Source of the DNA: a virus
Taxonomy: Duplodnaviria > Heunggongvirae > Uroviricota > Caudoviricetes
Strand: one strand, 5' to 3'
Length of the DNA: 64,000 bases
Virus record (IMG/VR): IMGVR_UViG_3300012347_000377
Span: 1-64,000 of that record
Shown: positions 27,536 to 63,581 of the stretch, piece by piece
How positions within the stretch are numbered: the stretch's first letter is position 1
Layout of the letters: the number at the start of each line of letters is the position of its first letter
The notes under the pieces: model-generated
What the model saw: the letters and a program-made list of their open reading frames with translations, nothing else
What the model was told of the DNA's origin: nothing
The model's database searches: none
Made by a program: the position numbers and the translations under genes

Positions 27536-27536
27536 T

Positions 27537-27622: not shown

Positions 27623-27737
27623 CAATGTAATGATTCGAAAGAATAGCGGAACAGATGCTAAGAATGAAATGGAAACGTTTGAAACTCGTATAAAGGAGTG
27701 AATTCGAAACAAACCGCACAGACATTACATTATTTTT

Positions 27738-27811
27738 GGGGATGTAGCTCAGTTGGCTAGAGCATCTGCCTTGCACGCAGAGGGTCGCAGGTTCGATTCC
27801 TGTCATCTCCA
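27738..27811 (+). tRNA. tRNA-Ala (TGC)
   Basis: GGGGATG/CATCTCC with G3:U70, TCTGC-CTTGCAC-GCAGA. Confidence 0.85.
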
Positions 27812-27819
27812 CTTTATTT

Positions 27820-27891
27820 GCTCCGTTCGACAAGCGGTTAAGTCACGTCCCTTTCACGGATGAGTCACGGGTTCGATTCCCGTACGGAGTA
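27820..27891 (+). tRNA. tRNA-Glu (TTC)
   Basis: GCTCCGT/ACGGAGT, CGTCC-CTTTCAC-GGATG. Confidence 0.75.
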
Positions 27892-27921
27892 CAACTATCG
27901 TTCTTTGATAAAACTAAAATT

Positions 27922-28284
27922 ATGGAAATACTATACATTGGCTTAGGTATATTATCATCGGCTTTTATATTCCTTTTGGGGTATTCGGTGAATGGTGTAT
28001 TTAACACACAGAAAAGAATAGTTGAATTGCAAGAGCAAATTAAAACTATTGATGTCAATTTAGGACAGATTGAAGAACACATTCATATCAGAATTAATGT
28101 AGTTGAAAAAGAACTACAAACAAACATTGATAGGGTGGATAGGGAATCGACAGCATTGTTAGATTCTCGATTAGACAAATTGGAAGCACGAATTCGAAAG
28201 GATATTCCAATTACGAATGATGAATTATTAAAAGAAATGAACGAAATTAAAGATGCGTTCAGACAAATGAGATTAACTTTATAA
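27922..28284 (+). CDS. membrane-anchored coiled-coil protein (120 aa)
   Basis: N-terminal TM helix then heptad-rich segment. Confidence 0.45.
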   Translation: MEILYIGLGILSSAFIFLLGYSVNGVFNTQKRIVELQEQIKTIDVNLGQIEEHIHIRINVVEKELQTNIDRVDRESTALLDSRLDKLEARIRKDIPITNDELLKEMNEIKDAFRQMRLTL

Positions 28285-28310
28285 ACTAATATAAAGAACG
28301 ATAGTTAAAC

Positions 28311-28398
28311 GGAGAGTTGTCAGAGTGGTCGATTGAGGTAGTCTTGAAAACTACTGCTTGTAACAGGGCCGGGGGTTCGAATCCCTCACTCTCCTCCA
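28311..28398 (+). tRNA. tRNA-Ser (TGA), CCA encoded
   Basis: GGAGAGT/ACTCTCC, GTAGT-CTTGAAA-ACTAC, long variable arm, ends TCCA. Confidence 0.8.
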
Positions 28399-28423
28399 AT
28401 TTTTAAATTTAAAACTAAATAGA

Positions 28424-28852
28424 ATGAATGTAAAACAAGCGTTAAAACTAAAAAATAAATTAGTTGGCGAAATCAAAGAGCAATACGAAATTGCAAAAAA
28501 GTATAATTCAATCGAAGAAGGTAATCCTCGTAGATACCAGATTGAAGGAGCATTACAACGTTCCGCAACTTTAACCAAAGAGTTGGTTGAATTGAAAACC
28601 AAATTACACAAAGCAAATATGCCGGTGTATCATTTAATCTTCGAATTAGCTGAAGCTAAGGGTAGAATTAAAGAATTGAAAAAAATCCCAACGGATGAAG
28701 GTAAACAAGAATCTCGTTATGGTAGTGTCATTTCAGTTAAAGAAGTAGAATTATCAGTAGTTGAAATCGCTGGTAAAATTAGATCAATGGAAGAAACTAT
28801 TGAAAGAATTCAGAATGAGTTGGATATTCATAATTCGAATACCCAAATCTAA
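28424..28852 (+). CDS. coiled-coil protein (142 aa)
   Basis: ORF. Confidence 0.45.
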   Translation: MNVKQALKLKNKLVGEIKEQYEIAKKYNSIEEGNPRRYQIEGALQRSATLTKELVELKTKLHKANMPVYHLIFELAEAKGRIKELKKIPTDEGKQESRYGSVISVKEVELSVVEIAGKIRSMEETIERIQNELDIHNSNTQI

Positions 28853-29073
28853 AAATATTGAGTAGAAGGGGGAGATGATATTTTTCTAATACATTCTTAC
28901 AATTCAACTATCTGGCACATAGCGGATGAACGATTAAGATATAGAACGATACACAACCTTCAACCCTTTTAGAGTCAACAATCGACCACTTTCAATGAAC
29001 TCAAACCTCGCTGAAACCTGGATGTCTTTTAAATTTTGATTCGAACCCTGAAACTCATTTATAAAAAACACAT

Positions 29074-30150
29074 ATGGATATTAATCAAATATTTGGAAAT
29101 TCTAAACAATTTAGTAATATTACACAGATAAACGAATTATTAAATGATGATGAAATCTATATCATAGATGGGTATATGATTAAACAAATGTCTTATCGTA
29201 TTGATGATGAAACTCCATATAAAGTTTCCATTGATCGTAAAGCCATCATTAGAAATAATCTAAAAAAAATAACAGATACATATAAAAAAATTATGTATTT
29301 TGAATCCGAAGAACTAGCATATGATTATGAGTCGGTTTCATATTTTATCGATTTATGTATGGAATTCGATGTTAAATTATTCATTTATTCATTTAATTGT
29401 AATATTAACGATTTCTTAAAAGTAAAATATCCAAATAAATATCCTACTCAAATATTAGCAAATACTGCAACTACTCTAATACAAAATTGTAATGGGCTTC
29501 CATCTAATTTGACTAGAACTAAAAATAAAAAATTACTTTTTTTAAATTATAATAGAAAAATAAATAGAGATTTAATAATAACATATCTTAAAAATTGGAA
29601 TGAATTACATAATCCAGAAAACATAATTTCATATCATAACAATTATACATTTAATTCAAATGTATATAAAACTATGTATAAAGATTATGCTGAAAAAAAT
29701 GGTATAGATTTTAATTATTTAGATTCATTGGTTTTAAAACCTGAAGAAGTTGATGTTCATAATCAAAGTGATGCACAGCAAAAAGCACAATTACTGCATT
29801 ATGAATCTAAATTTAATATAATTTGTGAACCATTTTTTGGATTAAGTGATAATCCAAATGAATATGAATATTACAACCATACACTAAGTAGAAAGGTAGT
29901 ATATCCTATATTATATAACAATGTTATATTTGTTCACGAACATAGTCCAATCTTATCTAAGACATTGAAAAATTTAGGATTTGAATTATTTTTTGATAAT
30001 ATTGAGGATTTTAAAAATAATATGACAGATAAGTTTTACTATTCAGACGAAACTCAAAGAAAACTCATACATAATAATACGTTATTGGAAAAACTTGGCT
30101 CAAGTTATAAAAAAACTTTAACGGATGAAATAAATAATTTTTTTAATTAA
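29074..30150 (+). CDS. hypothetical protein (358 aa), very A+T-rich (N/Y/I/K-rich)
   Basis: Long ORF inside tRNA region; composition differs from neighbours. Confidence 0.45.
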   Translation: MDINQIFGNSKQFSNITQINELLNDDEIYIIDGYMIKQMSYRIDDETPYKVSIDRKAIIRNNLKKITDTYKKIMYFESEELAYDYESVSYFIDLCMEFDVKLFIYSFNCNINDFLKVKYPNKYPTQILANTATTLIQNCNGLPSNLTRTKNKKLLFLNYNRKINRDLIITYLKNWNELHNPENIISYHNNYTFNSNVYKTMYKDYAEKNGIDFNYLDSLVLKPEEVDVHNQSDAQQKAQLLHYESKFNIICEPFFGLSDNPNEYEYYNHTLSRKVVYPILYNNVIFVHEHSPILSKTLKNLGFELFFDNIEDFKNNMTDKFYYSDETQRKLIHNNTLLEKLGSSYKKTLTDEINNFFN

Positions 30151-30186
30151 AAATTAAAAATAGTATATATATAAGTATATACAAAC

Positions 30187-30271
30187 GGAGGCGTGGCAGA
30201 GTGGTCGAACGCGGCGGTCTTGAAAACCGTTATACTGCAAGGTATCGTAGGTTCGAATCCTACCGCCTCCG
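30187..30271 (+). tRNA. tRNA-Ser (TGA), second copy
   Basis: GGAGGCG/CGCCTCC, GCGGT-CTTGAAA-ACCGT, long variable arm. Confidence 0.75.
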
Positions 30272-30515
30272 CAACCTTATTCTCATGTTGGGCTCAGGTG
30301 AGTGAAAAGCGTACGAGGTTACTGAGTCCTTTATTGTAGTGTGACGAAATTGGCAGACGTGCCCTCCTGTCTCGGGGGTGTGGAATAAAGAAATAGATTG
30401 ACAATATGGGGTAGACCACCAGCATGCATGCGAACGATGTTGTCAATTGAATCTCCATTTGAGTGGTTCGAATCCCTTCACTACAGCATTATTAATTTAA
30501 TATCCAGTATCGATA

Positions 30516-31642: not shown

Positions 31643-33472
31643 ATGGAAGATATTTCAAAAGTAGAAAAACGAATTCTTGAACAAATAGAAAGTAATGTTC
31701 CGTTGGTTGATGTGAAAATTGATTTAAGTAATTATCTGAAACATGCGTTTGTTAATGACCACATCGATAAATCTAAACAAGAAATAACTCACACTTTTCA
31801 ATATGAAACATTAGGAGAACAAGATTGTTTATTAATGCAAGCTCCTAATATCAATGAATCTGGTTATTATGCCGGTATTGTTGCGTTAAAATCCTACATA
31901 GATAAATTTCATTCAGATTTGAATGTTGCAATTATAGACCCCGTAATTGATTATTTTTATCTATATCCACCAAATAAAGAATCTGAATTTTTTAATATGT
32001 TCAACACCTATGCAATGCAAGGTCAATATGAACGTTTATATGAATTCACCGAAATGAATGATATGGTTGAAGGATTTGTCTTCAAATATATCGAAAAAAC
32101 CAATCCTGCATTTTTTGGATTAAGTATTATCGATGGTAATATCGATGCATCGATTGCAATTGCAAGAAGAGTTAAAGAACAATATCCACATATTAAAATT
32201 TTGATGGGTGGTAATGGAATTGAGGTTTTAGACTTCGGTGTTCTACCGAATCCTACTTACACAACTGAAAAATATGATTTCATTGATATTTTTGTAAGGG
32301 GCGATGGTGAAATTACTTTTGTGGAAATTTTGAAATCGGACATGTCTGAAGAATATCTAAAAACTATAAATGGAATTATTTGGAGAAATTCGGAAGGTAA
32401 GTTAGTTCATAATCATACTCGTGAAAATGTTGATATGGATATTTTACCATTTCCAGATTATGCTTCATTAGAGGAAAATTATTATTACAAATCTACCTAC
32501 CAATACAATGTTCCACTTGTTATGAGTAGAGGATGTCCTTACAGATGCACATTTTGTTCAGTACCTGAATTTATTCCGGTCTTCCGCTATCGTAAATTAG
32601 AATCGGTAATTGAAGAAATGGAACATTGGATTAACAAAGGACGTTATCACTTTTTCTGCCACGATTCAATTATTAATGGTGATCCAAGATGGTTGAAAAA
32701 ATTCTGCGAGGCAGTTATTGAAAAAGATTGGTATGCAAAATATGGTGTATCATTTGGTGGTAATATGAGATTACAAACTCCAATGCGTGATTTAGAAACA
32801 ATGCGATTATATCGTAAAGCCGGATTATTAAAAATGATTACAGGGTTTGAATCTGCATCAGAGCCAGTTTTAAAACATATGAAAAAATATCCTAATATGG
32901 ATGGGGTTAGGGAAATTTTTGAAAATGTTCGAATTATCAATAGTGAAAATGAACCTCCAATGATGTTTGCAATGCAACTTATTATTGGATACTTAAATGA
33001 GAGTGAGGAAGATTTTCAGAAAACAATTGATTTTGTGAAAGAGTATAAAGATTGTATGTCTGAAATCTTAACTTGTTCTGGGTTTCTTATCCACGAAACT
33101 TTACGAAAGAAATGGGTAGAAGATGGTAATTTTTTACAATATCATAATACGGTTAATTTTAATACCAATTATAATACTGCAGAAGAACGTTTGGATAGAC
33201 TTAACAGAATCGATGAAGTATTTAAAGAAATAGGAATACCACATTCGGTCTATAATAGAGGTTTATATTATGATTTAAAAGATAAAACTGATACGGAAAT
33301 CGGTGATATTTACAATATCGATGATTGTAAAAATCCGGACAAGATATTAGAAATAAATCAGTATTATAAAAATACTGAAGAAGAAATAATGGTTGAAACT
33401 GAATCGGAGATAATTGAAGAATATATTCAAATGTCAAATGAAGAACCTCCAAAAATTACTAAATTAATTTAA
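31643..33472 (+). CDS. B12-binding-domain radical SAM enzyme
   Basis: CPYRCTFCSV (CxxxCxxC) preceded by Rossmann-like ILMGGNGIE region typical of cobalamin-binding rSAM proteins. Confidence 0.75.
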   Translation: MEDISKVEKRILEQIESNVPLVDVKIDLSNYLKHAFVNDHIDKSKQEITHTFQYETLGEQDCLLMQAPNINESGYYAGIVALKSYIDKFHSDLNVAIIDPVIDYFYLYPPNKESEFFNMFNTYAMQGQYERLYEFTEMNDMVEGFVFKYIEKTNPAFFGLSIIDGNIDASIAIARRVKEQYPHIKILMGGNGIEVLDFGVLPNPTYTTEKYDFIDIFVRGDGEITFVEILKSDMSEEYLKTINGIIWRNSEGKLVHNHTRENVDMDILPFPDYASLEENYYYKSTYQYNVPLVMSRGCPYRCTFCSVPEFIPVFRYRKLESVIEEMEHWINKGRYHFFCHDSIINGDPRWLKKFCEAVIEKDWYAKYGVSFGGNMRLQTPMRDLETMRLYRKAGLLKMITGFESASEPVLKHMKKYPNMDGVREIFENVRIINSENEPPMMFAMQLIIGYLNESEEDFQKTIDFVKEYKDCMSEILTCSGFLIHETLRKKWVEDGNFLQYHNTVNFNTNYNTAEERLDRLNRIDEVFKEIGIPHSVYNRGLYYDLKDKTDTEIGDIYNIDDCKNPDKILEINQYYKNTEEEIMVETESEIIEEYIQMSNEEPPKITKLI

Positions 33473-33475
33473 TAT

Positions 33476-33509
33476 ATAACCCATTGAAATTCAATGGGTT
33501 TATTTTTTA
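33476..33509 (+). terminator. rho-independent terminator (conserved hairpin family)
   Basis: AACCCATTGAAATTCAATGGGTT plus T-run. Confidence 0.65.
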
Positions 33510-33530
33510 TTAAAAATAATTGAAAAAACA

Positions 33531-38607: not shown

Positions 38608-38967
38608 ATGAGAGCTAGAACATTTACAACCGTTGGTTGGGAAAAATATCTAAATCCAATCGACAATCCTTTTGTTCAAAAATTTTTAGATAAAAATGGA
38701 AATGAGGTATTTGACCAAATTGCATTGAACATAAATACAGCAATCCTTCAGAAAAAAGAATCAATAGCATTTGTAGTTCATACCAACGCATCTTCGATAG
38801 TTGTAATCGAAAGAAAAGATTATGAAGTTGTGTTAAATCATTGCTTAGATTGGTTTATTAAAAAAGAAAATTATGAATTCTGTGCTAGAATTGATGAATT
38901 CAAACAAAATTTAGCAAAATCAAAAGAACCTGTTAGTAGATTTAAGAGTAAAAAAACTTTAATTTAA
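38608..38967 (+). CDS. hypothetical protein
   Basis: ORF. Confidence 0.45.
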   Translation: MRARTFTTVGWEKYLNPIDNPFVQKFLDKNGNEVFDQIALNINTAILQKKESIAFVVHTNASSIVVIERKDYEVVLNHCLDWFIKKENYEFCARIDEFKQNLAKSKEPVSRFKSKKTLI

Positions 38968-46192: not shown

Positions 46193-46762
46193 ATGTTTAC
46201 ACTTTTTATAGATAATTTTTTAACAAATGAAGAGTGTGAATCACTCATACAACTTGGAAAAGAAAGTGGATTACAGAAAATGTCATCATCTAAATTTGTA
46301 AATGGTGTTCATGTTGAAACCGCTATAAATGAAGATACTAATAAACGAATGGGATGTTATTTGGTAGATACTTCATTACAACTCCCAATCATACAAACTA
46401 TTTCATCCAAAGTTATTCATACATTAAATGAATTAAAAATATTTAATGGTTTAAATTATTCACATATACCAAAATATTCGTTCAATCAATATTCTAAAAA
46501 TGATTTTTTGGATTGGCATTCAGATTTGCATGAAATTCAATATGGTGCAACCATTACCACTATATTTCAATTAAACGATTCATATGATGGCGGTGATATA
46601 AAATATATAATAGATAATATTGAATATTCCGTTCCTAAAAAGACTGGTAGTATTTTTATTTTTGATTCCAATATCTCACATTCAGTTGATAAATTAACTG
46701 ATGGTATTAGATACTCATTAAATGTTTGGCCAGGAAGTGTTATGAAAAAATCAATAATTTAA
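46193..46762 (+). CDS. 2OG-Fe(II) oxygenase, prolyl-4-hydroxylase-like
   Basis: WHSDLHE (HxD) ... ISHSVD distal His; paralogue of 53186-53752. Confidence 0.55.
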   Translation: MFTLFIDNFLTNEECESLIQLGKESGLQKMSSSKFVNGVHVETAINEDTNKRMGCYLVDTSLQLPIIQTISSKVIHTLNELKIFNGLNYSHIPKYSFNQYSKNDFLDWHSDLHEIQYGATITTIFQLNDSYDGGDIKYIIDNIEYSVPKKTGSIFIFDSNISHSVDKLTDGIRYSLNVWPGSVMKKSII

Positions 46763-46774
46763 TAAATTACTCAT

Positions 46775-47110
46775 ATGAAATTTATAATAATATTTACCAT
46801 ATTTATATTAACATTATACATTAGTATAGGTTGGAACAAAATATGGGATAGATATAAAATGTATTTATCCAACGAATATTGGACAGATTACAATATAATA
46901 GAATTAGCAGCATGGTTGACTAAGGCAATAATCATAATTCCTGGACTAATATTTGGTATTGAATTGTGGTATATGCATTTTTTAACATTAGCAACTTCTT
47001 CTGCTTTAATTTGGGCATCAATGAGAAAATCATTACCAACATTAATATTATTCAATACCATATGGATTTGTATATCACTAACAATAATAATAAGACATTT
47101 AATACCATAA
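46775..47110 (+). CDS. membrane protein (111 aa)
   Basis: Hydrophobic. Confidence 0.45.
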   Translation: MKFIIIFTIFILTLYISIGWNKIWDRYKMYLSNEYWTDYNIIELAAWLTKAIIIIPGLIFGIELWYMHFLTLATSSALIWASMRKSLPTLILFNTIWICISLTIIIRHLIP

Positions 47111-47111
47111 T

Positions 47112-48353
47112 ATGAAAGTAGTAATAATTGGTGGAGGAACTGCCGGATGGTTAACGGCTTTGGTAGTTAATAAATTTTGGAAAAACGCAGACGTTACCTT
47201 AATTGAAAGTTCTAAGATAGGAATATTAGGAGCAGGAGAAGGTGGAACTCCCAATTTCGGAAGAATGCTAAGTTTATTGGATATTAATCATGAAGATTTT
47301 TTTGAAAAAACTAAATCAACTATAAAAAGTGGAGTACATTTAGTTAATTGGACAGGTAATGGGGAATTATCAAAACATTTATTTACTGGAGCAGAACCCG
47401 ATTCATTTAATAAACATCATGCATATCACTTCGATGCTCGAGCAGTTGCTGAATATTTTAAAGGTATTTCCATATCAAGAGGAGTTAATTGGATTGATGG
47501 TGAAGTTGATACAATTGAAAATAATGGTGATGAAATTAAATCTGTTTCATTGAAAGATAATACTAAAATAGATTTAGATTTTGTATTTGATTGTAGTGGG
47601 TTCAAGCGTATTATCATAGATGGCATTCATTCGGAAGAATGGATTGATTATGATAAATATTTAATGATGAATAAGGCGTTTACATTTTTCCTACCACAAT
47701 CTACGGAAGATGTAGGGTATTCCAAAACATATACTCGTATGGTTTCTATGAATTCCGGTTGGATGTTTCAAATACCATTACAACATAGATGGGGATGTGG
47801 GTATGTCCACAACGATAAATATATTTCAATAGATGAAGCTAAGAAAGAAATCGAAGATTATTTAGGACATGAGGTAAATATACAAAAGATATTTGATTTT
47901 AAACCCGGAACACATAAACGTAGTTGGATAGGAAATTCAATATCAATTGGATTATCATATGGGTTTATTGAACCATTGGAAGCAACATCGTTAATGTCTA
48001 CTATCATGCAATTAAAAAGATTGATTGATACCGAGTTCGATGCGGGATATCGAGATAGATATAATACATGGTGCTATCAAATAAACGAACAAAATTTAAA
48101 CTTCATACGATTCCATTATCTATGTGAACGAGAAGATACTGAATTTTGGAAAGATTGCACATCATTACCATTACCTACTAAATTAAAAAATATATTAGAT
48201 AAAAATAATTCATTAATACCAACGAATGATTTCCAATTACTTAATATGCTAGAATTACAAGAATCGTCTGTAAATGAATTAACATTTTATGTAAATAATT
48301 ATTCTACTATTTTTGTAAAAAATAAAAACAAAGGAAAAAGACAATTGTTATAA
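47112..48353 (+). CDS. flavin-dependent halogenase (tryptophan-halogenase family)
   Basis: N-terminal VIIGGGTAGW FAD motif and GWMFQIP matching the WxWxIP halogenase signature. Confidence 0.65.
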   Translation: MKVVIIGGGTAGWLTALVVNKFWKNADVTLIESSKIGILGAGEGGTPNFGRMLSLLDINHEDFFEKTKSTIKSGVHLVNWTGNGELSKHLFTGAEPDSFNKHHAYHFDARAVAEYFKGISISRGVNWIDGEVDTIENNGDEIKSVSLKDNTKIDLDFVFDCSGFKRIIIDGIHSEEWIDYDKYLMMNKAFTFFLPQSTEDVGYSKTYTRMVSMNSGWMFQIPLQHRWGCGYVHNDKYISIDEAKKEIEDYLGHEVNIQKIFDFKPGTHKRSWIGNSISIGLSYGFIEPLEATSLMSTIMQLKRLIDTEFDAGYRDRYNTWCYQINEQNLNFIRFHYLCEREDTEFWKDCTSLPLPTKLKNILDKNNSLIPTNDFQLLNMLELQESSVNELTFYVNNYSTIFVKNKNKGKRQLL

Positions 48354-48354
48354 T

Positions 48355-48996
48355 ATGGAAAAGATAATATTTGATAATGATATTTGTATTTGGAAAACGA
48401 AATTAAATTTGTCTGAATATAAGAATCAAATTTTAGAGTTATGTGAAGACGTAGTCAAAAATAATACAGAGGGTGTAAATTTTGATGCATATTCATATTC
48501 CAAAATAAAAGATGATGTAAATTTCTTAGGTAATATTGTTATTAAAAATAAATTAGATGAGATTGGTCAAATATCTATAAACAATTGTAAAAAAATACAC
48601 AACGATAGGGGTATAGATTTTAATATGGTAGAAACCGATGCTTGGGTTAATATTGTAAGAAGTGATAATCCAGTTCAATTAAATTTTAAGGAAGGTCATG
48701 AAAAATATCACATACATACCGAATTAAATAAAACAAATAATTCATTCGTTCCATCTTATACCTATGTGTATTATATACAAATGCCCGATAGGATAGAGGG
48801 TGAAGATGCTGTTTTATATTTTAAAAGTAAAAGTGGTAAAGAGTATTCTATATTACCAGAAGAAGATGATTTACTAATTATGGAAGCAGATGTCCCACAT
48901 GCACCAAATAATGCACCCAACTCTACGATAGACAGAATTGTGTTTGCAGGTAATGTTGGGTTAAGTTATGTTAAAAAGGAGAAGTCTTTAATATAA
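48355..48996 (+). CDS. hypothetical protein, possible cupin/2OG-oxygenase-like
   Basis: KYHIHTE ... VPHAP could form an HxE...H facial triad; weak. Confidence 0.35.
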   Translation: MEKIIFDNDICIWKTKLNLSEYKNQILELCEDVVKNNTEGVNFDAYSYSKIKDDVNFLGNIVIKNKLDEIGQISINNCKKIHNDRGIDFNMVETDAWVNIVRSDNPVQLNFKEGHEKYHIHTELNKTNNSFVPSYTYVYYIQMPDRIEGEDAVLYFKSKSGKEYSILPEEDDLLIMEADVPHAPNNAPNSTIDRIVFAGNVGLSYVKKEKSLI

Positions 48997-49721
48997 TGCT
49001 AGTAGATAATAAATTTATATATCTAAGTTTACCGAGATGTGCATCAACAGCTTTTTTTATTTCATGTATTAGAAATGGTATAAAAATTGAACATGCTCAA
49101 AATACCGATGATAATATGTATCGTAATATTGATTTGAAATCGATGGGTAATATGGAGTTAGTTTATAATATTAATCATTTTCACGAAACAATCCAATCCT
49201 TAAAAACTAAATTCGGAAATGAGTATGAAATCATATCAGTAAAACGAAATCGTCACCAAAGATTTATTTCATATTTTAACCACATAATCGGTGAATTATA
49301 CCGAAATGGGTATATGGAATTATATCATAAAGTTTTGGAGTTGAATGTAAATGATATATTATTTTATAATAGTATTGATTTGATTAACATTGAAAGTAGA
49401 ACAAAATTAGTTAATACGTTTTTAACTAATATGGGATTTGCTGAATATGATAATAATATACAATCATTATTCTTGCCATTGTTTTCACCATTGTGCACAT
49501 ATCATAACAATGATTCATCAATAAAATGGTTTGATTTTAATAATTTATCTGAATTAGAAAAATGGGTAAGTGTTAAATTAAATAAACCATTTAAATTGGA
49601 AAACTTTGGTTCTAGTTATAACTACAAATCTAAGTTGATAGTAGATGACGAGTTTATACAAAAATATAACAACATTTACGATTATTATGATTTACCAAAA
49701 TCAATAAAAACTTTAATATAA
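48996..49721 (+). CDS. sulfotransferase-like protein, tandem paralogue A
   Basis: MLVDNKFIYLSLPRCASTAF (PAPS 5'PSB-like) ; first 60 nt nearly identical to next gene. Confidence 0.4.
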   Translation: MLVDNKFIYLSLPRCASTAFFISCIRNGIKIEHAQNTDDNMYRNIDLKSMGNMELVYNINHFHETIQSLKTKFGNEYEIISVKRNRHQRFISYFNHIIGELYRNGYMELYHKVLELNVNDILFYNSIDLINIESRTKLVNTFLTNMGFAEYDNNIQSLFLPLFSPLCTYHNNDSSIKWFDFNNLSELEKWVSVKLNKPFKLENFGSSYNYKSKLIVDDEFIQKYNNIYDYYDLPKSIKTLI

Positions 49722-50479
49722 TGTTAGTAGATAATAAATTTATATATCTAAGTTTACCGAGATGTGCATCAACAGCATTTCACTATTCATGTCTTATATC
49801 CGATTTAAAAGTTGAAACTTATACCAATACTTTAATACCATTAAATGATAATGTTGATTTTAAATCAATTGATAAGTCTAATTTAATGAATCACATATAT
49901 CATGCTCACGAATCAATTGGTGATTTACAATCTAAATTTGGAACATCATATCCAGTTGTTGCAGTTAAACGAAACCGACATGAAAGATTTTATTCATTAT
50001 ATAAACACATTTTGTTTGATTTGAAACGAAGTGGTTATCCTAAAATTTATGAAGCTTTTTCTAAACTTACATTAGATGAATTATTTTTTTTTACTAAAAA
50101 TGATTTAATTAATAAAAAACAAAGATGGGATGTAATATCTCAATATTTAATTGACTTAAAACTATTAGATAAAAAAGTTGATATTATCAATTGGGAAAAT
50201 ACTATATTTGGTTATGCTGTAAATATGATTGATATATTACTAACACCCATTTCATATTGGACAAATAACGATTCTAATATTATTTGGTTTGATTTTGATA
50301 AAATAAATGAGTTGGAAAGTTGGGTTTCTGAAAAAGTAGATAAACCCTTTAAATTAGAATCAGCAAATTCTAGTAAACACATTGAATGCAATATTGTATT
50401 AGATGATAGGTTTATAAACAAATATAATGATATTTATGATTACTACGATTTACCAAAATCTACCATTACCTTAATATAA
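49721..50479 (+). CDS. sulfotransferase-like protein, tandem paralogue B
   Basis: Same N-terminus and C-terminal IYDYYDLPKS motif as paralogue A. Confidence 0.4.
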   Translation: MLVDNKFIYLSLPRCASTAFHYSCLISDLKVETYTNTLIPLNDNVDFKSIDKSNLMNHIYHAHESIGDLQSKFGTSYPVVAVKRNRHERFYSLYKHILFDLKRSGYPKIYEAFSKLTLDELFFFTKNDLINKKQRWDVISQYLIDLKLLDKKVDIINWENTIFGYAVNMIDILLTPISYWTNNDSNIIWFDFDKINELESWVSEKVDKPFKLESANSSKHIECNIVLDDRFINKYNDIYDYYDLPKSTITLI

Positions 50480-50483
50480 TAAT

Positions 50484-50771
50484 ATGATTGATTACAAAGA
50501 AATATTTGAAGCATGGAAAATATCGTTTAATCCAAATCATTCACAAGAATTATTGGCAAAGGAACGATTGGATGTATGTTTGGGATGTGATTTTAGAAAA
50601 GAAGTTTTAAAAGGAGTGAAGTGGTCTGCATATTGTGGTGATTGTGGATGTCCGTTAAATAAAAAAGTATTTTCAACTATGTTTAATCCCTGCACTCAAA
50701 AAAAATGGGAAAATGTTGATTCTAAGTATTTAGATGTAATTAAAACTAAAAATAAAAATTCTATAATTTAA
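50484..50771 (+). CDS. Cys-rich small protein (95 aa)
   Basis: CLGCDF ... CGDCGCP ... C. Confidence 0.4.
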   Translation: MIDYKEIFEAWKISFNPNHSQELLAKERLDVCLGCDFRKEVLKGVKWSAYCGDCGCPLNKKVFSTMFNPCTQKKWENVDSKYLDVIKTKNKNSII

Positions 50772-50817
50772 ATAATCATATATTTATAGAAGAATATTAA
50801 ACAAATATAAGGATTTT

Positions 50818-52305
50818 ATGAAAGCAACTATCATAGGTAGCGATTTATTGGAAAAAAATGGAAGTGTTAAGTTTTTAGAAATAAACACAAATACAACCAT
50901 TTATAACACAGGTGCCGATTTATTAGATTATACCGCATTATTTGATGTCTTAACAACTAACAACATAACTGAATTTCATTTTATATGGACAGAAGTGGAT
51001 TCATATACTCCACTTGTAGAACCATTTAGATTTAAAGAAATTTTACAAGAAAAATGTGCGGAAAATAACATATCATTCACAGAATATGTAGTTCCTGTTA
51101 ATTCAGTAACCGTTCCATACATTGAAGATGCACCTAACAAATTTATATTAAGACAATCATATGATACTACTGCATTAGTAGATGAAACATATTGTGCTAA
51201 TAAATTTGAGTTCTTTAACTTAATGAGTGGGTCTGAATATATTCCTGCTACATATTTTAGTGGTAGTGCATTACAAATGGATGAATTTTCTACATTGGAT
51301 ACGTCATTAGATGCACCAAATGTTTTAGTTAAAGCAAACTCTCCTTCATATGATTTAAATTTATATCCAGCATTATACAAATTAGATGATATTTCTGAAT
51401 TGAATAGTTTAAAAACCGAATTAGGTTCTGATTACTTAGTTCAAGAATTTGTTTATTCGGATGATAATATTGTTGATGGTAGATATTCTATCATTCGTAG
51501 TATTGATATTATATATGGTTCTAACTTAGATGTAATCAACTTAGGTGGATATAAACAAAGCACATTAATACCGATGAGTTTTACTACTGATGAATTTGTT
51601 TCAGATACAAAACGTTTGAATCAAAAAAGTAGAATAAAATATATTTCAAAACCTATTACAAGAGAATATGCTAATGAATACCATACCGATTCTGATTCTG
51701 TTATTTTAGATTATACCGGTTCATTGGTCGATGTAGATAATTTGAAATTAGGTGATTATATAAAATCTATAAATTTCCAAGATATACATGGTAATAATGC
51801 AGCTGGATTTGATCAAACTCTTTTAGAAACCTATGGTTGGGAAACTACAATACCGCAAGCAAATGAAACCCTAACTGCCGAATCATCTAGTTTAGCAAAC
51901 GTATATTCTTCATCGGTTGATACTATCTATGTAAGAATTACATTAGAAGATGGGAAAACGTGGGTAGATGCACCTTCTTGTACATATTTCATTGAAGAAA
52001 CTGATTCAGATAAAACTAGATTTGAAAAAGTAAATAATATGGTAGTAGGTGATAAATTGGTTGTAACTGATACATCTACAAACGAATTAACTACGATAGC
52101 AATTACATCATTAGAAATGGAACATGCTCAAACAATTATTTATAGTTTAGACTTTGAACCATCTGATTTATTCTTAGTAGATGTAGGTGATGGTTTGTTT
52201 AGCGTGATGCACAATACTTGTTGGTGTCCTTGGGTCTATTGTGGATACTATTGTAACTCTAACTACTGCCCTGGCTGTGGTGGTGGTGGTTTTGAAAAAG
52301 CATAA
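50818..52305 (+). CDS. hypothetical protein with Cys/Trp/Tyr/Pro-rich C-terminal tail
   Basis: C-terminus HNTCWCPWVYCGYYCNSNYCPGCGGGGFEKA. Confidence 0.5.
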   Translation: MKATIIGSDLLEKNGSVKFLEINTNTTIYNTGADLLDYTALFDVLTTNNITEFHFIWTEVDSYTPLVEPFRFKEILQEKCAENNISFTEYVVPVNSVTVPYIEDAPNKFILRQSYDTTALVDETYCANKFEFFNLMSGSEYIPATYFSGSALQMDEFSTLDTSLDAPNVLVKANSPSYDLNLYPALYKLDDISELNSLKTELGSDYLVQEFVYSDDNIVDGRYSIIRSIDIIYGSNLDVINLGGYKQSTLIPMSFTTDEFVSDTKRLNQKSRIKYISKPITREYANEYHTDSDSVILDYTGSLVDVDNLKLGDYIKSINFQDIHGNNAAGFDQTLLETYGWETTIPQANETLTAESSSLANVYSSSVDTIYVRITLEDGKTWVDAPSCTYFIEETDSDKTRFEKVNNMVVGDKLVVTDTSTNELTTIAITSLEMEHAQTIIYSLDFEPSDLFLVDVGDGLFSVMHNTCWCPWVYCGYYCNSNYCPGCGGGGFEKA

Positions 52306-52475
52306 TATTACTAATTAAAAAAAATATAAAATAAAATGGCAACTATAAATAAAACACACAGACCGGCTTCAGTAATTAAAGCTAACATCACTCCACTATC
52401 AAGTGAATTAAAAGTGAAACTTGCAAATGCAGTTAGTGAAGTTGTAAATAAAATCAAAGAAACCCATTTAAATTA

Positions 52476-53171
52476 ATGGCTTCATCCAGATTACATCAAT
52501 TAAAAATAGTTGATAGTATTGTGGGTGCTGAGATTGGAAACACATTATTATCAAAAATCGAAATAGATTATGGTAATGATATCAGAAAACATAGTGATTT
52601 TACATTACGAAATATTGTCCACGATGTTTCCAATTACATCGAAATGGGATTCAATTCCGATTGGAATATTTTAAATAAAAATACCATACAAGAAATACAA
52701 AAGTTATGGGGTGAATATATTACAAACTATCGTAATAATTATTCACCCCATAATTATATCGAAACTAATGCAATTTTATTAGATAATAGAGTTGATGGTA
52801 TTGGATACTATTGGGTTGATTTAAATACTCGTTATTCAATTGAAATGATTGCCAGAATGGGAAATTGTGGTAGATGTAATTATGGTAATACTTTAATAGA
52901 ATTACGAGAAACTACAAAAGATTCAAGTAAATCCCACGTTGTTATTGTATATAATATAGCATCTGGTCTTATAAGACAAATCAAAGGTAAAGGTGATATA
53001 ATACCATCCGAAGAATATTGGGATGAAATATTTAATTTTTATATTAACACCCCATATCACATTTCAGGTCATAATTATACACAGAAAGAAGGTATAGATT
53101 TTAAACCAGAAATGTTTAGTAAAGAAAAATATGAATTAGTCAAATCTAAAATTATAAATAAAATATTTTAA
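52476..53171 (+). CDS. hypothetical protein (231 aa)
   Basis: ORF. Confidence 0.45.
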   Translation: MASSRLHQLKIVDSIVGAEIGNTLLSKIEIDYGNDIRKHSDFTLRNIVHDVSNYIEMGFNSDWNILNKNTIQEIQKLWGEYITNYRNNYSPHNYIETNAILLDNRVDGIGYYWVDLNTRYSIEMIARMGNCGRCNYGNTLIELRETTKDSSKSHVVIVYNIASGLIRQIKGKGDIIPSEEYWDEIFNFYINTPYHISGHNYTQKEGIDFKPEMFSKEKYELVKSKIINKIF

Positions 53172-53185
53172 ATAATTAACTTATT

Positions 53186-53752
53186 ATGAATTATACTATA
53201 AACCATAATTTTTGTGATAAAACTGAAGCTAATTCTATAATTGATTTTTGTATCAAATATGGAGAACCCTTTTCATATCAACCAACCGAAGTTTGGGATT
53301 GTAGACGAATATATGATGAATCATTTAAAACAAAAATATTAAATAAATTAATCAATTATTACAAAAATGGTGAATTCAAATTATGGTTTGATTATAATAA
53401 TTTTAATGTAAAAAATTTTAATATTAGTTTAACTTCGTATTATGATGGTAGATTTTTAAACTTACATAAAGATAAAGTAAGTGAACTAACAACAGTAATA
53501 GTATTATCCGATGGATTTGAAGGTGGTGAGTTTGCATTATGCGAGGATACAAATCCACCAATATATTTTGAAACATTAGACGAGGTTTCAACTTTCAATC
53601 TTAACTTAGGAGATTCCATCTCTTTTAATGGTTCTAAAACATATCATGGAGTATTACCCGTAACCAATGGTATTAGATATGCATTGAATATTTGGATGAC
53701 AGAATCCAATTATACATACCCACTAACTAAAGTTAATACTACATTATTATGA
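53186..53752 (+). CDS. 2OG-Fe(II) oxygenase, prolyl-4-hydroxylase-like (second copy)
   Basis: LHKDKVSE ... GGEF ... YHGVLPV ... RYALNIW parallels 46193-46762. Confidence 0.5.
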   Translation: MNYTINHNFCDKTEANSIIDFCIKYGEPFSYQPTEVWDCRRIYDESFKTKILNKLINYYKNGEFKLWFDYNNFNVKNFNISLTSYYDGRFLNLHKDKVSELTTVIVLSDGFEGGEFALCEDTNPPIYFETLDEVSTFNLNLGDSISFNGSKTYHGVLPVTNGIRYALNIWMTESNYTYPLTKVNTTLL

Positions 53753-54396
53753 GAGTTGCAATACTAACGAGTGCACGAAGTGGTTCTACGAGTTTATATC
53801 ATTTAATCGAAGCCCATTTAAATAAAAAAAATCATATTTGTATATCAGAACCATTTAATAATTATTGGCGAGAGAAGATAGGTAAACAAACATATGATGT
53901 GAATTTTTTTGAAAATAAAAAAAACATTTTTATAAAAACATTTGTCAGTAAAACTCAAAAACCAAAAAGTTTATTAGAAAACGAAGAGGGGTATTGGGAG
54001 TGGTTTTTTAATTATTTTGAAAAAATAATTCTGTTAGATAGAATAGATAAAGATTTACAAAGTGAAAGTTTAACATATCACATAAAAGTAGATGATATTC
54101 ATAGTTGGCAAAAAAGACAAGTATATGATTTATCAATAACTACACCTGAAGAGATTCTTAATAGTAAAAATGTATTATTAAATGAATCCAATATGATACA
54201 CAATTTTTCTAAAAAAGGTTACCCCTTATATTATTTTGAAGATATTTTTATCAAAAAAGATAAAAGTAAAATCATTGATATTTTTAAATATTTGGATATA
54301 GATTTGAACGAATCAATGTATAATGATTATGTGTATTCAGATGCGTGTAAAATACGAATTGGCGAAGATGAATCTAAATTCAAAAGTATAATATAA
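53749..54396 (+). CDS. sulfotransferase (Stf0/Sulfotransfer_3-like)
   Basis: N-terminal ILTSARSGSTSLYHLI PAPS-binding motif. Confidence 0.5.
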   Translation: MRVAILTSARSGSTSLYHLIEAHLNKKNHICISEPFNNYWREKIGKQTYDVNFFENKKNIFIKTFVSKTQKPKSLLENEEGYWEWFFNYFEKIILLDRIDKDLQSESLTYHIKVDDIHSWQKRQVYDLSITTPEEILNSKNVLLNESNMIHNFSKKGYPLYYFEDIFIKKDKSKIIDIFKYLDIDLNESMYNDYVYSDACKIRIGEDESKFKSII

Positions 54397-54694: not shown

Positions 54695-55891
54695 ATGAAT
54701 TCGTTAAAGTATTTAGTAGGATTATCAGCATTAATTATTGCTGGATGTGCTGCGTATTTTTCAGTAACGGGATTGGGTGTTCTTTTTGCAGGAGCATCTA
54801 TACCTGTAATGATAATGGCAAGTTCATTGGAATTTGCTAAATTAGTAGCAGCAACTTATCTAAAACAAACTTGGGGTGAAATTAAAGGTTTTAACAAATG
54901 GTATTTAACTATATCAGTTGGAATTTTGATGTTAATCACATCTGCAGGTATTTTTGGCTATCTTTCTAATGCTTTTCAAACACAATCTCTTCAATTACAG
55001 CAAGTTGATAGGGAAGTATTGGTTTTTTCAACCAAAATTGACCAAAATACATCACAAATAGAGCAGTTAAACACTCAATTAGGACAATTATCTTCAACTC
55101 AATCTCAAATTTTAGAAAAAGGTAAGGTAAATTCACGTTTATTACGTTCAATTGACAATAAAGACAAGCAAGTTTCCCAAATTAATAAGAAAATAGCAGA
55201 TTTACAAGAAGAAAACGCCAAAAATAACGAAAAAATCAACGAAATTAAGGTAAAAAACTTAGGATTAGAGAAAGAAGTGGGTGGTTTTCGATTTATTGCC
55301 GAAGTTTTTGGTATGGAATTGAAAAATGTTGTAAAATTCTTCATATTTTTGATTGTAATTGTGTTTGACCCCCTTGCAATTGCCTTAATTATCGCATTTA
55401 ATGGTTTAATTGGTGATAAAAAAACCAAACAACGTAAAATTCTTACCGAAATGATGGAAAATGACCAAAAATTAGGTTTGTATGAAGTATATGGTGATAA
55501 AAAAGAAGATTTAGTGGAAAATAATTCACAAAATAAAGAAGAAACACCCATTATAGTGGAAAATCCACCAATAACACCCAATGATGAGTTAATCGAAGCA
55601 TTTGAAACTTATAATTCCAATTTAGATTTAGATAAGGATGGAATTGTGTCAGAGGAAGAACAATCTGCTGATTCAGATGGTGATGGTGTGGTCTCTGAAG
55701 AAGAACAACGAAAATGGTATGAGGAAGGTGGATGGAAATCACCATATGAAGGAAAAGCTTTCTATCACCATCCCTGGTTTGATTGGAGTAAGAGAGAACG
55801 TTGGATTAATGATAGAAAAGCAATAGATTATTGGTTAAGTTATCAAGGTGGAACTCAAGCTGCGTTAGAAGAATACAAAAAAAGTAAATAA
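54695..55891 (+). CDS. membrane protein with coiled coil and EF-hand-like DxDxDG motifs
   Basis: N-terminal TM helices; DLDKDGIVSEEE and DSDGDGVVSEEE. Confidence 0.45.
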   Translation: MNSLKYLVGLSALIIAGCAAYFSVTGLGVLFAGASIPVMIMASSLEFAKLVAATYLKQTWGEIKGFNKWYLTISVGILMLITSAGIFGYLSNAFQTQSLQLQQVDREVLVFSTKIDQNTSQIEQLNTQLGQLSSTQSQILEKGKVNSRLLRSIDNKDKQVSQINKKIADLQEENAKNNEKINEIKVKNLGLEKEVGGFRFIAEVFGMELKNVVKFFIFLIVIVFDPLAIALIIAFNGLIGDKKTKQRKILTEMMENDQKLGLYEVYGDKKEDLVENNSQNKEETPIIVENPPITPNDELIEAFETYNSNLDLDKDGIVSEEEQSADSDGDGVVSEEEQRKWYEEGGWKSPYEGKAFYHHPWFDWSKRERWINDRKAIDYWLSYQGGTQAALEEYKKSK

Positions 55892-62438: not shown

Positions 62439-63581
62439 TTGGGATTTATGAATACAATAGATAAAAAATATCAGGACTTACTACAAGATATATTAGATAA
62501 CGGGATTGTTAAATCGGATAGAACTGGCACTGGTACAATATCTGTATTTGGAAGACAAATTAGACATAGAATGTCCCAAGGGTTTCCATTGCTAACCACA
62601 AAGAAAATGGCATGGAATGTTATGGTGACAGAGCTCTTATGGTTTCTAAGAGGTGATACTAACATCAAATTCTTATTGGATTATGATTGTCATATTTGGG
62701 ATGGTGATGCTTATAAGAACTACACTAAACAAGTCAATGATATTATTGATGGATATGAATGTGGAGATATAATGGGAATACAACCACATATTGAGGAGAT
62801 GTTCAGTAATTCAGATAAACTTATTCCTTTAACCCAATTCGAGTTTATCAACAAAATCAAAACAGATGATAAGTTTGCTAAACAATGGGGTGAATTAGGA
62901 CCAATCTATGGAAGAATGTGGAGAAAGTTTGATGAGGATAGTTATGGTGGCATTGATCAAATTCAAAACTTAATTGAGGATTTAAAAACAAATCCCGATA
63001 GTAGAAGATTAATGGTTACTGCTTGGCACCCTGGTTATAATGAACATTCGGTTCTCCCACCTTGTCATTATGGATTTCAAGTTTATACGAGAGAGTTGAG
63101 TGAGGATGAACGATTAGAATATTGGACAAAATCATTGGATAAGAGTATTCATTACGCAGATGATTTCAGTCATTCAAAATTAGATACATTAAGAATACCA
63201 AGAAGAACAATCTCCTTAATGTGGAATCAACGTTCAGTAGATACATTCTTAGGTTTACCATTCAATATTGCATCATATGGTTTGTTATTAGAAATCATAG
63301 CAAAGGAAGTGAATATGATACCCGATGAATTGATTGGTAATTTAGGTGATGTTCATTTATATTCAAACCACATTGAACAAGCAAAAGAACAAATTCAAAG
63401 AACTTCATATGATTTACCAAAAATTCAAATTACCGAACGTAATTGGTATCAGCATGAAAAAGTAAAAGAACATTTAGGTGAAAAAACTTTTAGTGAAAAG
63501 ATATTATCATACAGACCGGAATGTTTTGAATTAGTAGATTATCAATCACACCCAAAAATTAAAGCACCATTATCAAACTAA
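62439..63581 (+). CDS. thyA: thymidylate synthase ThyA (with insertion)
   Basis: DRTGTGT, RRLMVTAWHPG, LPPCH active-site Cys, DVHLY. Confidence 0.9.
   Translation: MGFMNTIDKKYQDLLQDILDNGIVKSDRTGTGTISVFGRQIRHRMSQGFPLLTTKKMAWNVMVTELLWFLRGDTNIKFLLDYDCHIWDGDAYKNYTKQVNDIIDGYECGDIMGIQPHIEEMFSNSDKLIPLTQFEFINKIKTDDKFAKQWGELGPIYGRMWRKFDEDSYGGIDQIQNLIEDLKTNPDSRRLMVTAWHPGYNEHSVLPPCHYGFQVYTRELSEDERLEYWTKSLDKSIHYADDFSHSKLDTLRIPRRTISLMWNQRSVDTFLGLPFNIASYGLLLEIIAKEVNMIPDELIGNLGDVHLYSNHIEQAKEQIQRTSYDLPKIQITERNWYQHEKVKEHLGEKTFSEKILSYRPECFELVDYQSHPKIKAPLSN

Follow-up and report, generated by a model that had tools for sequence, protein, structure and literature searches.

Among described systems, those closest to the locus reported here include ones found in marine T4-like phages (cyanomyoviruses and Pelagibacter phage HTVC008M) and in clusters for peptides that are ribosomally synthesised and then altered post-translationally (RiPPs). 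Cyanomyoviruses typically encode multiple 2-oxoglutarate (2OG)-Fe(II) oxygenases per genome (PMC3037559), one viral halogenase has been biochemically characterised, as cited in PMC10452541, and genome mining has reported phage-borne RiPP-like clusters (PMC11118758; bioRxiv 10.1101/2020.10.01.322628). Here we describe a gene module at positions 46193-54396 of a 64,000-nucleotide stretch (the window) of IMG/VR record IMGVR_UViG_3300012347_000377, a Caudoviricetes virus whose contig measures 288,673 bp. The module encodes a halogenase, oxygenases and sulfotransferase-fold proteins, together with a 495-amino-acid (aa) protein that ends in a Cys-rich tail.

The module is a conserved operon-like unit of a clade of large uncultured phages. 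Its constant core centres on the 495-aa protein, which combines a Hint (Hedgehog/intein) fold domain with an invariant tail, and variable enzymes are added on both sides. For this reason we favour, tentatively, the reading that the module tailors a ribosomally made product by acting on this tail, which we consider the likeliest account of the locus. The enzyme families themselves are known, two of them well known in phages; what is new is the substrate architecture (Hint domain plus Cys-rich tail) and a C-terminal tag shared by the enzymes.

Conservation and layout of the module

Scanning IMG/VR with the 495-aa protein returned 97 contigs of up to 316 kb, with 57-92% identity over the full length; locus counts below refer to 80 loci out of these contigs, many of which are truncated. 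Naming genes by their first position in the window, the order common to the 80 loci is oxygenase, halogenase, 48355-type oxygenase, (oxygenase), sulfotransferase a/b, 95-aa protein, 495-aa protein, 46-aa open reading frame (ORF), variable gene, 53186-type oxygenase, (sulfotransferase c). No partner accompanies the 495-aa protein more constantly than the 46-aa ORF, which has a homologue in 79/80 loci and is called as a gene in relatives L082 (GCA_013565755.1, a 324-kb contig) and L084. Sulfotransferase a/b and the 95-aa protein are each present in 74/80 loci and the 48355-type oxygenase in 68/80, followed by the 53186-type oxygenase (58/80), the halogenase (46/80), sulfotransferase c (53749-type, 22/80), the 231-aa protein (52476, 11/80) and the 111-aa hydrophobic protein (46775, 9/80). 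Most related loci also carry a homologue of the 46193 oxygenase with at least 50% identity, and in the variable slot at 52476 most relatives carry an SGNH/GDSL-like DUF6071 protein. The invariant core comprises oxygenase 48355, sulfotransferase 49721, the 95-aa protein, the 495-aa protein and the 46-aa ORF. An independent scan that started from the sulfotransferase found a 495-aa homologue downstream in 58/58 new loci with enough downstream sequence, which brings the module order to at least 138 related viral contigs (80 + 58), some of up to 333 kb.

In the window, the block holds eleven ORFs of at least 95 aa plus the 46-aa ORF, all on the + strand, with neighbours mostly abutting or overlapping by 1-4 bases. 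All ORF coordinates of the original prediction, which had been made from the sequence alone, were reproduced on this strand:

46193..46762, +, 2OG-Fe(II) oxygenase, prolyl-4-hydroxylase (P4H)-like (PF13640), 189 aa, ending ...KKSII
46775..47110, +, small hydrophobic (membrane-type) protein, 111 aa, untagged, no family match
47112..48353, +, flavin-dependent halogenase, tryptophan-halogenase family (PF04820), 413 aa, ending ...KRQLL
48355..48996, +, divergent 2OG-Fe(II) oxygenase, nearly invariant core, 213 aa, ending ...KEKSLI
48996..49721, +, sulfotransferase-fold protein, paralogue a, 241 aa, ending ...KTLI
49721..50479, +, sulfotransferase-fold protein, paralogue b, core, 252 aa, ending ...ITLI
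50484..50771, +, six-Cys 95-aa protein, core, ending ...KNSII
50818..51612, +, 495-aa protein, N-terminal domain (about residues 1-265), weakly ATP-grasp/acid-amine-ligase-like
51697..52215, +, 495-aa protein, Hint fold domain (about residues 294-466), from Ser294 (inferred start) to His465-Asn466
52216..52305, +, 495-aa protein, 29-residue tail TCWCPWVYCGYYCNSNYCPGCGGGGFEKA, x-C-W-C-P-W-x-Y-C-G-x-x-C-x4-C-x2-C, then a variable end
52336..52476, +, 46-aa ORF without Cys, directly 3' of the 495-aa gene, untagged, no family match
52476..53171, +, 231-aa protein, variable slot, no family match
53186..53752, +, 2OG-Fe(II) oxygenase, P4H-like (PF13640), 188 aa, ending ...NTTLL
53749..54396, +, divergent sulfotransferase-family protein, 215 aa, ending ...KFKSII

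The block has a G+C content of 0.2695 against 0.317 for the rest of the window, the lowest among 112 sliding 8.2-kb windows. Its proteins are enriched in Asn, Tyr and Ile, and N+Y+I+K make up 31.7% of their residues against 27.5% elsewhere in the window. The earlier description of an A+T-rich block with N/Y/I/K-rich proteins is borne out by these figures. Its interpretation as a horizontally acquired module is not: besides the synteny described above, the module is A+T-richer than its flanks in 22/22 full-length relatives, so that its composition is a property of the module rather than a trace of recent transfer, and recent acquisition was rejected on these two grounds. The block is an old, lineage-wide module with a composition of its own. 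A scan of the block for sigma-70 promoters and terminators gave no excess over shuffles and is uninformative on transcription units.

Metagenomic homologues of the 495-aa protein number 575, of which not one is named or has a Pfam domain. Searched with its alignment, 185,579 bacterial and archaeal species, each represented by a single genome, yielded no relative, and when the 495-aa, 95-aa and 49721 proteins were compared by tblastn with 50,697 GenBank phage records, no match was returned. Megablast searches of GenBank phages, run with the block and with the first 25 kb, gave tRNA matches only, so this phage is without a sequenced close relative; its helicase is nearest to those of Bacteroidota phages (35-40% identity). 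The sulfotransferase and 495-aa core was also seen on one contig labelled as belonging to a giant-virus metagenome bin (L145, IMGVR_UViG_GVMAG-M-3300013132-70_000001), probably through a binning error.

The 95-aa protein, which is probably metal-binding, has six invariant Cys (C-x2-C ... C-x2-C-x-C ... C) and matches phrog_13558, a family of unknown function (8e-7); a PDB profile search with its family gave no match.

The 495-aa protein

In a 62-sequence alignment, the tail residues Cys468, 470, 475, 479, 484 and 487 are each kept in at least 90% of the members, and in a 40-sequence set Trp469 and Pro471 are invariant, with Trp472 and Tyr474 nearly so. Directly ahead of the tail, His465-Asn466 is invariant in the 62 sequences (57-92% identity), and the residue that follows Asn466 (position +1) varies between T, S, G, A and P. 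The Cys/Trp/Tyr/Pro-rich C-terminus singled out in the original prediction is thus real, being strongly conserved in 62 relatives, and its invariance and central place in the conserved gene order make it a good candidate substrate.

The stretch ahead of the tail, IYSLDFEPSDLFLVDxGDGxFxVMHN, resembles intein blocks F and G by eye, and block A is matched, likewise by eye, by the invariant Ser294 and the VILDYTG...LKLGDY that comes after it. Two structure-level searches concur on the Hint fold; in one of them, Foldseek comparison of a model of the 495-aa protein with predicted viral structures returned Hint-domain and intein-containing proteins. The most fitting description is that of a divergent Hint domain rather than a splicing intein: with T, S, G, A or P at +1 there is no conserved nucleophile, so it would be at most a cleaving Hint like the A-type bacterial intein-like (BIL) domains. 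In A-type BIL domains the terminal His-Asn is conserved, and the C-terminus is cleaved via the Asn without ligation of the flanks, and Asn cyclisation uncoupled from splicing sets the C-terminal segment free (PMC7765530). By analogy, cyclisation of Asn466 would release or expose the 29-residue tail; a Hint domain that ends in His-Asn ahead of the tail gives it a concrete release route. The N-terminal domain weakly resembles an ATP-grasp enzyme.

A minority of relatives have variants of about 565 aa (P0036, P0079, P0082 and P0110), in which an extension of about 70 residues follows the tail (SDISFKENI...GVIAQEL). Two of the four match Peptidase_S74 (PF13884) at E 0.0028 and 0.0072 (17-18.4 bits, under the 22-bit cut-off), aligned from model position 1, and a PDB sequence search with the extension found no match. 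If the S74 match is real, the tail of these variants is flanked by two self-processing modules.

Such variants are relevant to a second reading, in which the 495-aa protein is structural, possibly trimeric, and takes part in virion or protein decoration without release; its Cys-rich tip would be metal-binding or adhesive, the enzymes would modify this tip and perhaps further proteins of phage or host, and the Hint domain would be structural or an inactive relic. An S74-like C-terminal chaperone segment is a hallmark of trimeric fibres and spikes, and relative L082 encodes a 1129-aa fibre-like protein about 5 kb downstream of the module, where three small proteins ending ...NYY/...TYY are also found. 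That the block-B His of Hint domains was not found and that +1 holds no nucleophile would fit a relic as well. The invariance of His465-Asn466 across such divergent sequences instead argues for a working junction, the ATP-grasp-like N-terminal domain is enzyme-like and unlike a fibre, and the module of the window lies amid genes for nucleotide metabolism and repair rather than structural genes. Overall, we regard decoration without release as unlikely.

Enzymes and their shared C-terminal tag

Flavin-dependent halogenases are marked by a GxGxxG flavin motif, a catalytic Lys, WxWxIP and the Glu of FxEPLE. The 47112-48353 protein passes the family model PF04820 Trp_halogenase (E 2.8e-88, 297.2 bits, cut-off 21) and matches phrog_2928 (1.5e-99). 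Its sequence reads GGGTAGW, the Lys in TIKSGVHLVNW, GWMFQIP and FIEPLEA, so that WxWxIP appears as WMFQIP, with Phe in place of the second Trp. At 413 aa it is short for the family, without the long C-terminal substrate domain of the roughly 530-aa Trp halogenases. Its nearest phage relatives are those of HTVC008M (34.8% identity) and cyanophages (about 30%).

Two of the oxygenases score above the PF13640 (2OG-FeII_Oxy_3) gathering score of 27: 46193, at E 3.6e-10 and 41.1 bits, with a further match to phrog_61 (6.8e-23), and 53186, at E 2.1e-8 and 35.4 bits. The His-x-Asp...His iron triad of this family, with an Arg about 10 residues past the distal His, can be read in them as WHSD...HSV (distal His)...RYS and HKD...HGV...RYA, respectively. 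The third, 48355, stays under the gathering score on its own (1.5e-3, 19.9 bits), and 14/16 aligned members of its family match PF13640, the best at 4.9e-7. His119, His121, His182 and Arg194 are invariant in this family, which has no clear carboxylate ligand; its PDB profile matches were to designed repeat proteins via one 22-residue stretch and were dismissed as an artefact. The halogenase, the two P4H-like oxygenases and the possible third oxygenase proposed from the sequence alone were therefore all recovered in profile searches, the third at the level of its family.

Three sulfotransferase-like proteins had also been called. No Pfam, NCBIfam or PHROGs model matched 48996, 49721 or 53749, every curated sulfotransferase model having failed, and the calls are upheld by more sensitive comparisons of paralogy, fold and family profiles. 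The first two are indeed the tandem duplicate that had been proposed, being paralogues of 46% identity that both contain LPRCASTAF and KRNRHxRFxS. Sulfotransferases carry a PKxGTT-like 5'-phosphosulfate loop and an R-x(6-7)-S 3'-phosphate motif. Matched to these by eye, the invariants of the 49721 family are P13-R14-x-x-S17-T18 and R84...F90-S92, and those of the 53749 family R10-x-G12-S13-x-S15 and R98...Q104-x-E-S107. A PDB sequence-profile search with the 49721 family returned only a Zeta-toxin P-loop (E 0.39), and a sulfotransferase fold was found by structure comparison, as expected of sulfotransferases that depend on 3'-phosphoadenosine-5'-phosphosulfate (PAPS). The 53749 protein shows an ARSGSTSL loop and DRxDKxLQSES and has 70 relatives in an exhaustive search of 1.84 billion representatives. 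The three top PDB sequences for its family profile are all sulfotransferases (the CurM ST at 0.0035, the OLS ST domain at 0.013 and NodH at 0.063); 8/42 of its members weakly match Sulfotransfer_3 (best 1.6e-4) and others Stf0 (1e-4) or Sulfotransfer_1, all sub-threshold.

Searches of the related loci found a gene for adenosine-5'-phosphosulfate (APS) kinase (PF01583), the enzyme that makes PAPS, beside the module in L082 and L083 and in 29/80 loci overall; there is none within the 64-kb window. An APS kinase adjoining the module in relatives fits real PAPS-dependent sulfation chemistry. Upstream of the module in L082, genes for an APS kinase, a carbamoyltransferase and a GT25 glycosyltransferase lie in the region of 770-3112 and 4831-5624, together with a 120-aa protein with an HxGH-type nucleotidyltransferase motif (WHKGHEWL) that, with the APS kinase, may constitute sulfate activation.

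Nearly all of the module enzymes share a C-terminal tag that the flanking genes do not have. Its strict form, [ST][LIV][LIV]-COOH, is found in 7/11 block ORFs (46193, 48355, 48996, 49721, 50484, 53186 and 53749) and in 1/102 other ORFs of the window (hypergeometric P 6.6e-8; expectation 0.69 per 113 ORFs), and its fuller form is K-x-[ST]-[LIV]-[LIV]-COOH. The halogenase end, ...KRQLL, is a loose version, and its homologues loosely retain K-x-L-I; the 495-aa protein and the 46-aa ORF are untagged. Among the homologues of five families in the 80 loci, the tag is retained in 67/69 (48355-type), 17/17 (48996-type), 67/76 (95-aa), 62/69 (53186-type) and, in the fifth family, 64/64; in the homologues of the flanking HD, Hsp20, UvdE and 398-aa families in these loci the count was 0. 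Residues ahead of the tag vary among homologues while the tag persists. In the one confident enzyme model, the last three residues have a predicted local distance difference test (pLDDT) score <50, i.e. they are flexible or disordered.

Could the tag be written at the level of nucleotides? In a third reading, unrelated auxiliary genes or "morons" would pile up in a permissive A+T-rich region, and the common C-terminus would be a by-product of nucleotide constraint at gene ends, for example from A/T-rich stretches where translation of the following gene starts, or of recombination junctions. Nowhere in the window is A+T content higher than in the block, A/T-only codons exist for Lys, Asn, Ile and Leu, and accessory members vary between loci, as the counts for the halogenase, the 53749-type protein and the 231-aa protein show. 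The Ser/Thr of the tag is nevertheless fixed in position and written with six different, G/C-containing codons; the tag is also found ahead of gaps of 46-127 nt to the next gene or of a terminator-like hairpin, and other tightly packed genes of the window are without it. Because the codons differ and the tag precedes intergenic gaps, we take it to be a protein-level feature, and a nucleotide-level artefact of A/T-rich junctions was rejected as its main cause. With near-complete retention in homologues whose preceding residues vary, and with a core order fixed in about 140 contigs, an accumulation of unrelated genes is very improbable.

Tagged proteins also occur outside the block and in relatives. 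In the window these are

31643..33472, +, B12-binding radical S-adenosylmethionine (SAM) enzyme outside the block, 609 aa, Pfam Radical_SAM (1.7e-15) plus B12-binding, with the looser end ...ITKLI
38608..38967, +, 119-aa protein outside the block, ending ...KKTLI and thereby the sole further ORF of the window to bear the tag in its strict form, no family match

The radical SAM enzyme has NCBIfam matches to BchE and to RiPP C-methyltransferase-like families, under cut-off; directly 3' of its gene, at 33473-33520, a hairpin cccattgaaattcaatggg and T-run look like an intrinsic terminator. Tagged families added in relatives are SGNH/GDSL-like DUF6071 proteins, extra oxygenases and two radical SAM families, one of which is of the N-terminal-twitch/SPASM type (357 bits), along with DUF6734, a 414-aa unknown and a small protein resembling sulfotransferases. 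The tag might serve for docking to a common partner, for sorting or for controlled degradation; neither the window nor the related loci revealed a reader of it, be it a PDZ domain, a shell protein or an unfoldase. A transfer-messenger RNA at 19030-19404, with predicted tag peptide AEEKSSFTFADAMAFVGADLAVAA, raises the question of C-terminal degrons beside tagged enzymes.

The window also carries genes of nicotinamide adenine dinucleotide (NAD) salvage, RNA ligase, PhoH, deoxycytidine monophosphate (dCMP) deaminase, UvdE, NT5C and an HD protein. Those that neighbour the block are relevant to a fourth reading, in which the oxygenases, the P-loop-like "sulfotransferases" and the radical SAM enzyme act on phage DNA or RNA, as in hypermodification clusters: dCMP deaminase, NT5C, a thymidylate-synthase homologue, PhoH, the HD protein and UvdE would suit such a role. 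The enzymes themselves speak against it, since the oxygenases are P4H-like PF13640 proteins and not TET/JBP or AlkB, the motifs of the sulfotransferase-fold proteins are of the PAPS-binding type (PRxxST, RSGST) without Walker-A GK[ST], and APS kinase accompanies the module in relatives; we also know of no role for halogenases in DNA modification. Nucleic-acid modification is therefore extremely improbable.

Other features of the window include the following:

7843-10650 and 13533-14672, NAD salvage (phosphoribosyl pyrophosphate synthetase-like protein and nicotinamide phosphoribosyltransferase), RNA ligase and, with 10671-12545, a 624-aa SPFH/Band-7 protein, usual large-phage cargo with no relation to the module
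19787-30272, 26 tRNA genes, a near-complete set
21301-21373, tRNA-like gene with the four-base anticodon gtga
54695-55891, 398-aa protein that has membrane segments at its N-terminus, a coiled coil and acidic repeats of the DxDxDG type (DKDGIVSEEEQ, DGDGVVSEEEQ), sub-threshold EF-hand/Excalibur matches, conserved downstream of the module in 14 loci
62439-63581, thymidylate-synthase homologue (phrog_160), 380 aa and longer than usual, near the dCMP deaminase at 36658 and the 5'-nucleotidase at 42868

The last of these may be an enzyme of the pyrimidine hydroxymethylase type, in which case it would point towards modified DNA.

Proposed function and comparison with known systems

If the module tailors the 495-aa tail, the Hint domain would cut its own C-terminal junction by cyclisation of Asn466, like an A-type BIL domain, and a peptide of about 29 residues would be freed or, alternatively, exposed and positioned. 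The halogenase, oxygenases and sulfotransferases would modify Trp or Tyr, Pro or other side chains, and Tyr or newly made hydroxyls of the tail, respectively, before or after release. The C-terminal motif may serve as a docking or sorting tag that draws the enzymes to one partner, possibly the ATP-grasp-like domain, the 95-aa protein or the 46-aa protein. PAPS would be supplied by the host or by the phage APS kinase encoded beside the module in many relatives.

Several observations weigh against this proposal. The Hint assignment comes from structure comparison, as no sequence method detects the domain: Pfam Hint/intein models match none of 40 family members even at E up to 5, a PDB profile search with the family gave nothing meaningful, and hhalign of the C-terminal half of the family against three inteins gave a probability of 0.2%. 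The AlphaFold2 model used has a mean pLDDT of 57, with 63-81 over residues 370-440, and there is no conserved instance of the block-B Thr-x-x-His, for which T375-L-E-D378 is a candidate. Cleavage and modification of the tail are predictions. The S74-like extension would fit a structural role instead of a released peptide, and the six-Cys tail could simply bind metal. Trp residues of the tail persist in loci without the halogenase, and two loci retain Pro471 without a 46193-type oxygenase. A weak covariation, in contrast, speaks for the proposal: in the tree of the protein, both losses of Pro471 coincided with loss of the halogenase and of the 46193-type oxygenase, which, with two events, is suggestive and statistically not useful. 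Three further points weigh against the proposal: cyanophages and HTVC008M have halogenases and oxygenases of these families and no Hint protein, structure comparison places 49721 nearest to heparan-sulfate sulfotransferases (N-, 3-O-, 6-O- and 2-O-), and in relatives a carbamoyltransferase, a GT25 glycosyltransferase and DUF6734 adjoin the module and SGNH-like genes lie within it.

The last three points lead to a further reading, in which the enzymes modify (by sulfation, hydroxylation, halogenation, carbamoylation and the like) a glycan or small molecule of the host envelope or virion (a polysaccharide, a lipopolysaccharide, a Nod-factor-like or another small molecule), as proposed for the variable islands of cyanomyoviruses, and the Hint protein is a separate neighbour. 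Besides the heparan-sulfate enzymes nearest to 49721, it can draw on the resemblance of the 53749 family to CurM/OLS and NodH, and on the NodU/CmcH type of the carbamoyltransferase, the Glyco_transf_25, DUF6734 and SGNH/GDSL-like proteins and the APS kinase of relatives; halogenase and dioxygenases do occur together without a Hint protein in HTVC008M and cyanophages. A separate neighbour is harder to square with the 49721 family, which was never seen without the 495-aa gene (58/58), and with the 95-aa, 495-aa and 46-aa genes, which are the most constant of all and lie amid the enzyme genes. Glycosyl- and carbamoyl-transferases are absent from the window, and the reading leaves unexplained why the operon has an invariant Cys/Trp/Tyr/Pro tail behind a self-cleaving fold. 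We consider glycan or small-molecule modification less likely than tailoring of the tail, and yet a serious competitor to it. Even with a glycan substrate, the shared tag and the ATP-grasp-like/Hint/Cys-tail protein would stay unexplained, and they are testable.

Tailoring of the 495-aa tail could be taken further. Cone-snail peptides combine bromo-Trp, hydroxy-Pro, sulfo-Tyr and several disulfides, and a widespread clade of jumbo phages might in the same way use the module to make a peptide of about 25-29 residues that excises itself, is rich in disulfides and carries halogen, hydroxyl and sulfate groups, released by the Hint domain (in some variants also by S74) and modified by a dozen unrelated enzymes recruited through their C-terminal tag. 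In this full form the proposal is doubtful; were it true, its recruitment logic would be opposite to the leader-peptide logic of known RiPP pathways.

Literature searches returned nothing that combines phage, sulfotransferase, halogenase and 2OG oxygenase, which is weak evidence given their incomplete coverage; with the same limit, they returned no Hint domain fused to a Cys-rich peptide and no shared enzyme tag. If the module does tailor the tail, it would be a pathway for maturing peptides or proteins that is proper to large phages of the lytic type and not to bacteria, with no counterpart in cultured phages or the 185,579 prokaryotic genomes, yet with hundreds of metagenomic homologues. The halogenase and 2OG-oxygenase genes of aquatic phages, long a puzzle, would then have a natural function, the Hint fold would have a new use in releasing a small modified peptide, and a portable C-terminal pathway tag would be at hand for genome mining and perhaps for enzyme-recruitment engineering.

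The original prediction had called this enzyme set foreign to known phage functions, which is too strong: Trp-halogenase homologues and multiple 2OG oxygenases are common in cyanomyoviruses and HTVC008M. The enzymes of these marine T4-like phages, whose halogenases are of the PrnA/VirX1 type, belong to the same Pfam families, the halogenase being 29-35% identical to those of 85 phage records, and HTVC008M has its halogenase beside dioxygenases. These phages differ from the module in three respects: They are without homologues of the 495-aa Hint protein, the 95-aa protein and 49721; their genes lie dispersed between structural genes and make up no single module; and the homologous enzymes of HTVC008M are without the C-terminal tag.

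Sulfation systems with sulfate activation of their own (NodH with NodPQ, CurM/OLS and heparan-sulfate sulfotransferases) share the sulfotransferase fold with the window proteins, whose motifs resemble the PAPS loop by eye, and the relatives with APS kinase (29/80) extend the likeness; the window proteins, in contrast, fail curated sulfotransferase models, and the window is without APS kinase.

Short C-terminal recognition peptides are known from encapsulin cargo loading, from class I PDZ ligands ([ST]-x-hydrophobic-COOH) and from ClpX C-motif 2 (a basic stretch and then a hydrophobic end, as in MuA). Like them, the tag is a short motif at the extreme C-terminus of otherwise unrelated enzymes, flexible in the model. 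In formal terms, [ST]-[LIV]-[LIV]-COOH is a class I PDZ ligand, and the Lys-rich stretch ahead of it resembles ClpX C-motif 2. The tag differs in that no receptor for it was identified in the window or the related loci.

With A-type BIL domains, pretoxin-HINT and Hog, the 495-aa protein shares the Hint fold, and with A-type BIL domains also the terminal His-Asn without a conserved +1 nucleophile (PMC7765530). It differs in having no sequence-level Hint match and no block-B Thr-x-x-His that could be found, and in being fused to an ATP-grasp-like domain inside a phage enzyme operon. In polymorphic toxins, too, the payload is C-terminal to the Hint domain; here it is a 29-residue Cys-rich peptide and not a toxin domain. 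The SDISFKENI/GVIAQEL segment of the variants of about 565 aa matches PF13884 from position 1, as would the Peptidase_S74 domains of tail fibres and endosialidases, and differs from them in its sub-cut-off scores, in having no PDB sequence match and in its absence from the window protein.

The favoured tailoring of the tail has a parallel in RiPP clusters and the cone-snail repertoire, where a Cys-rich peptide is likewise encoded beside halogenase, hydroxylase, sulfotransferase and radical SAM/SPASM enzymes (the last in relatives of the module). Tailoring enzymes are linked to the peptide gene here as in RiPP clusters, with synteny fixed in 80 + 58 loci. There is no short precursor with leader and core: the candidate core ends a 495-aa multidomain protein and has no short leader. 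Family-library scans found no match to a RiPP recognition element (RRE) or PqqD-like element in any ORF. An RRE, a leader protease and a transporter are not recognisable, and release is proposed to occur through the fused Hint domain. In RiPP clusters recognition lies with the substrate, whereas here it is the enzymes that bear the shared, recognition-like motif.

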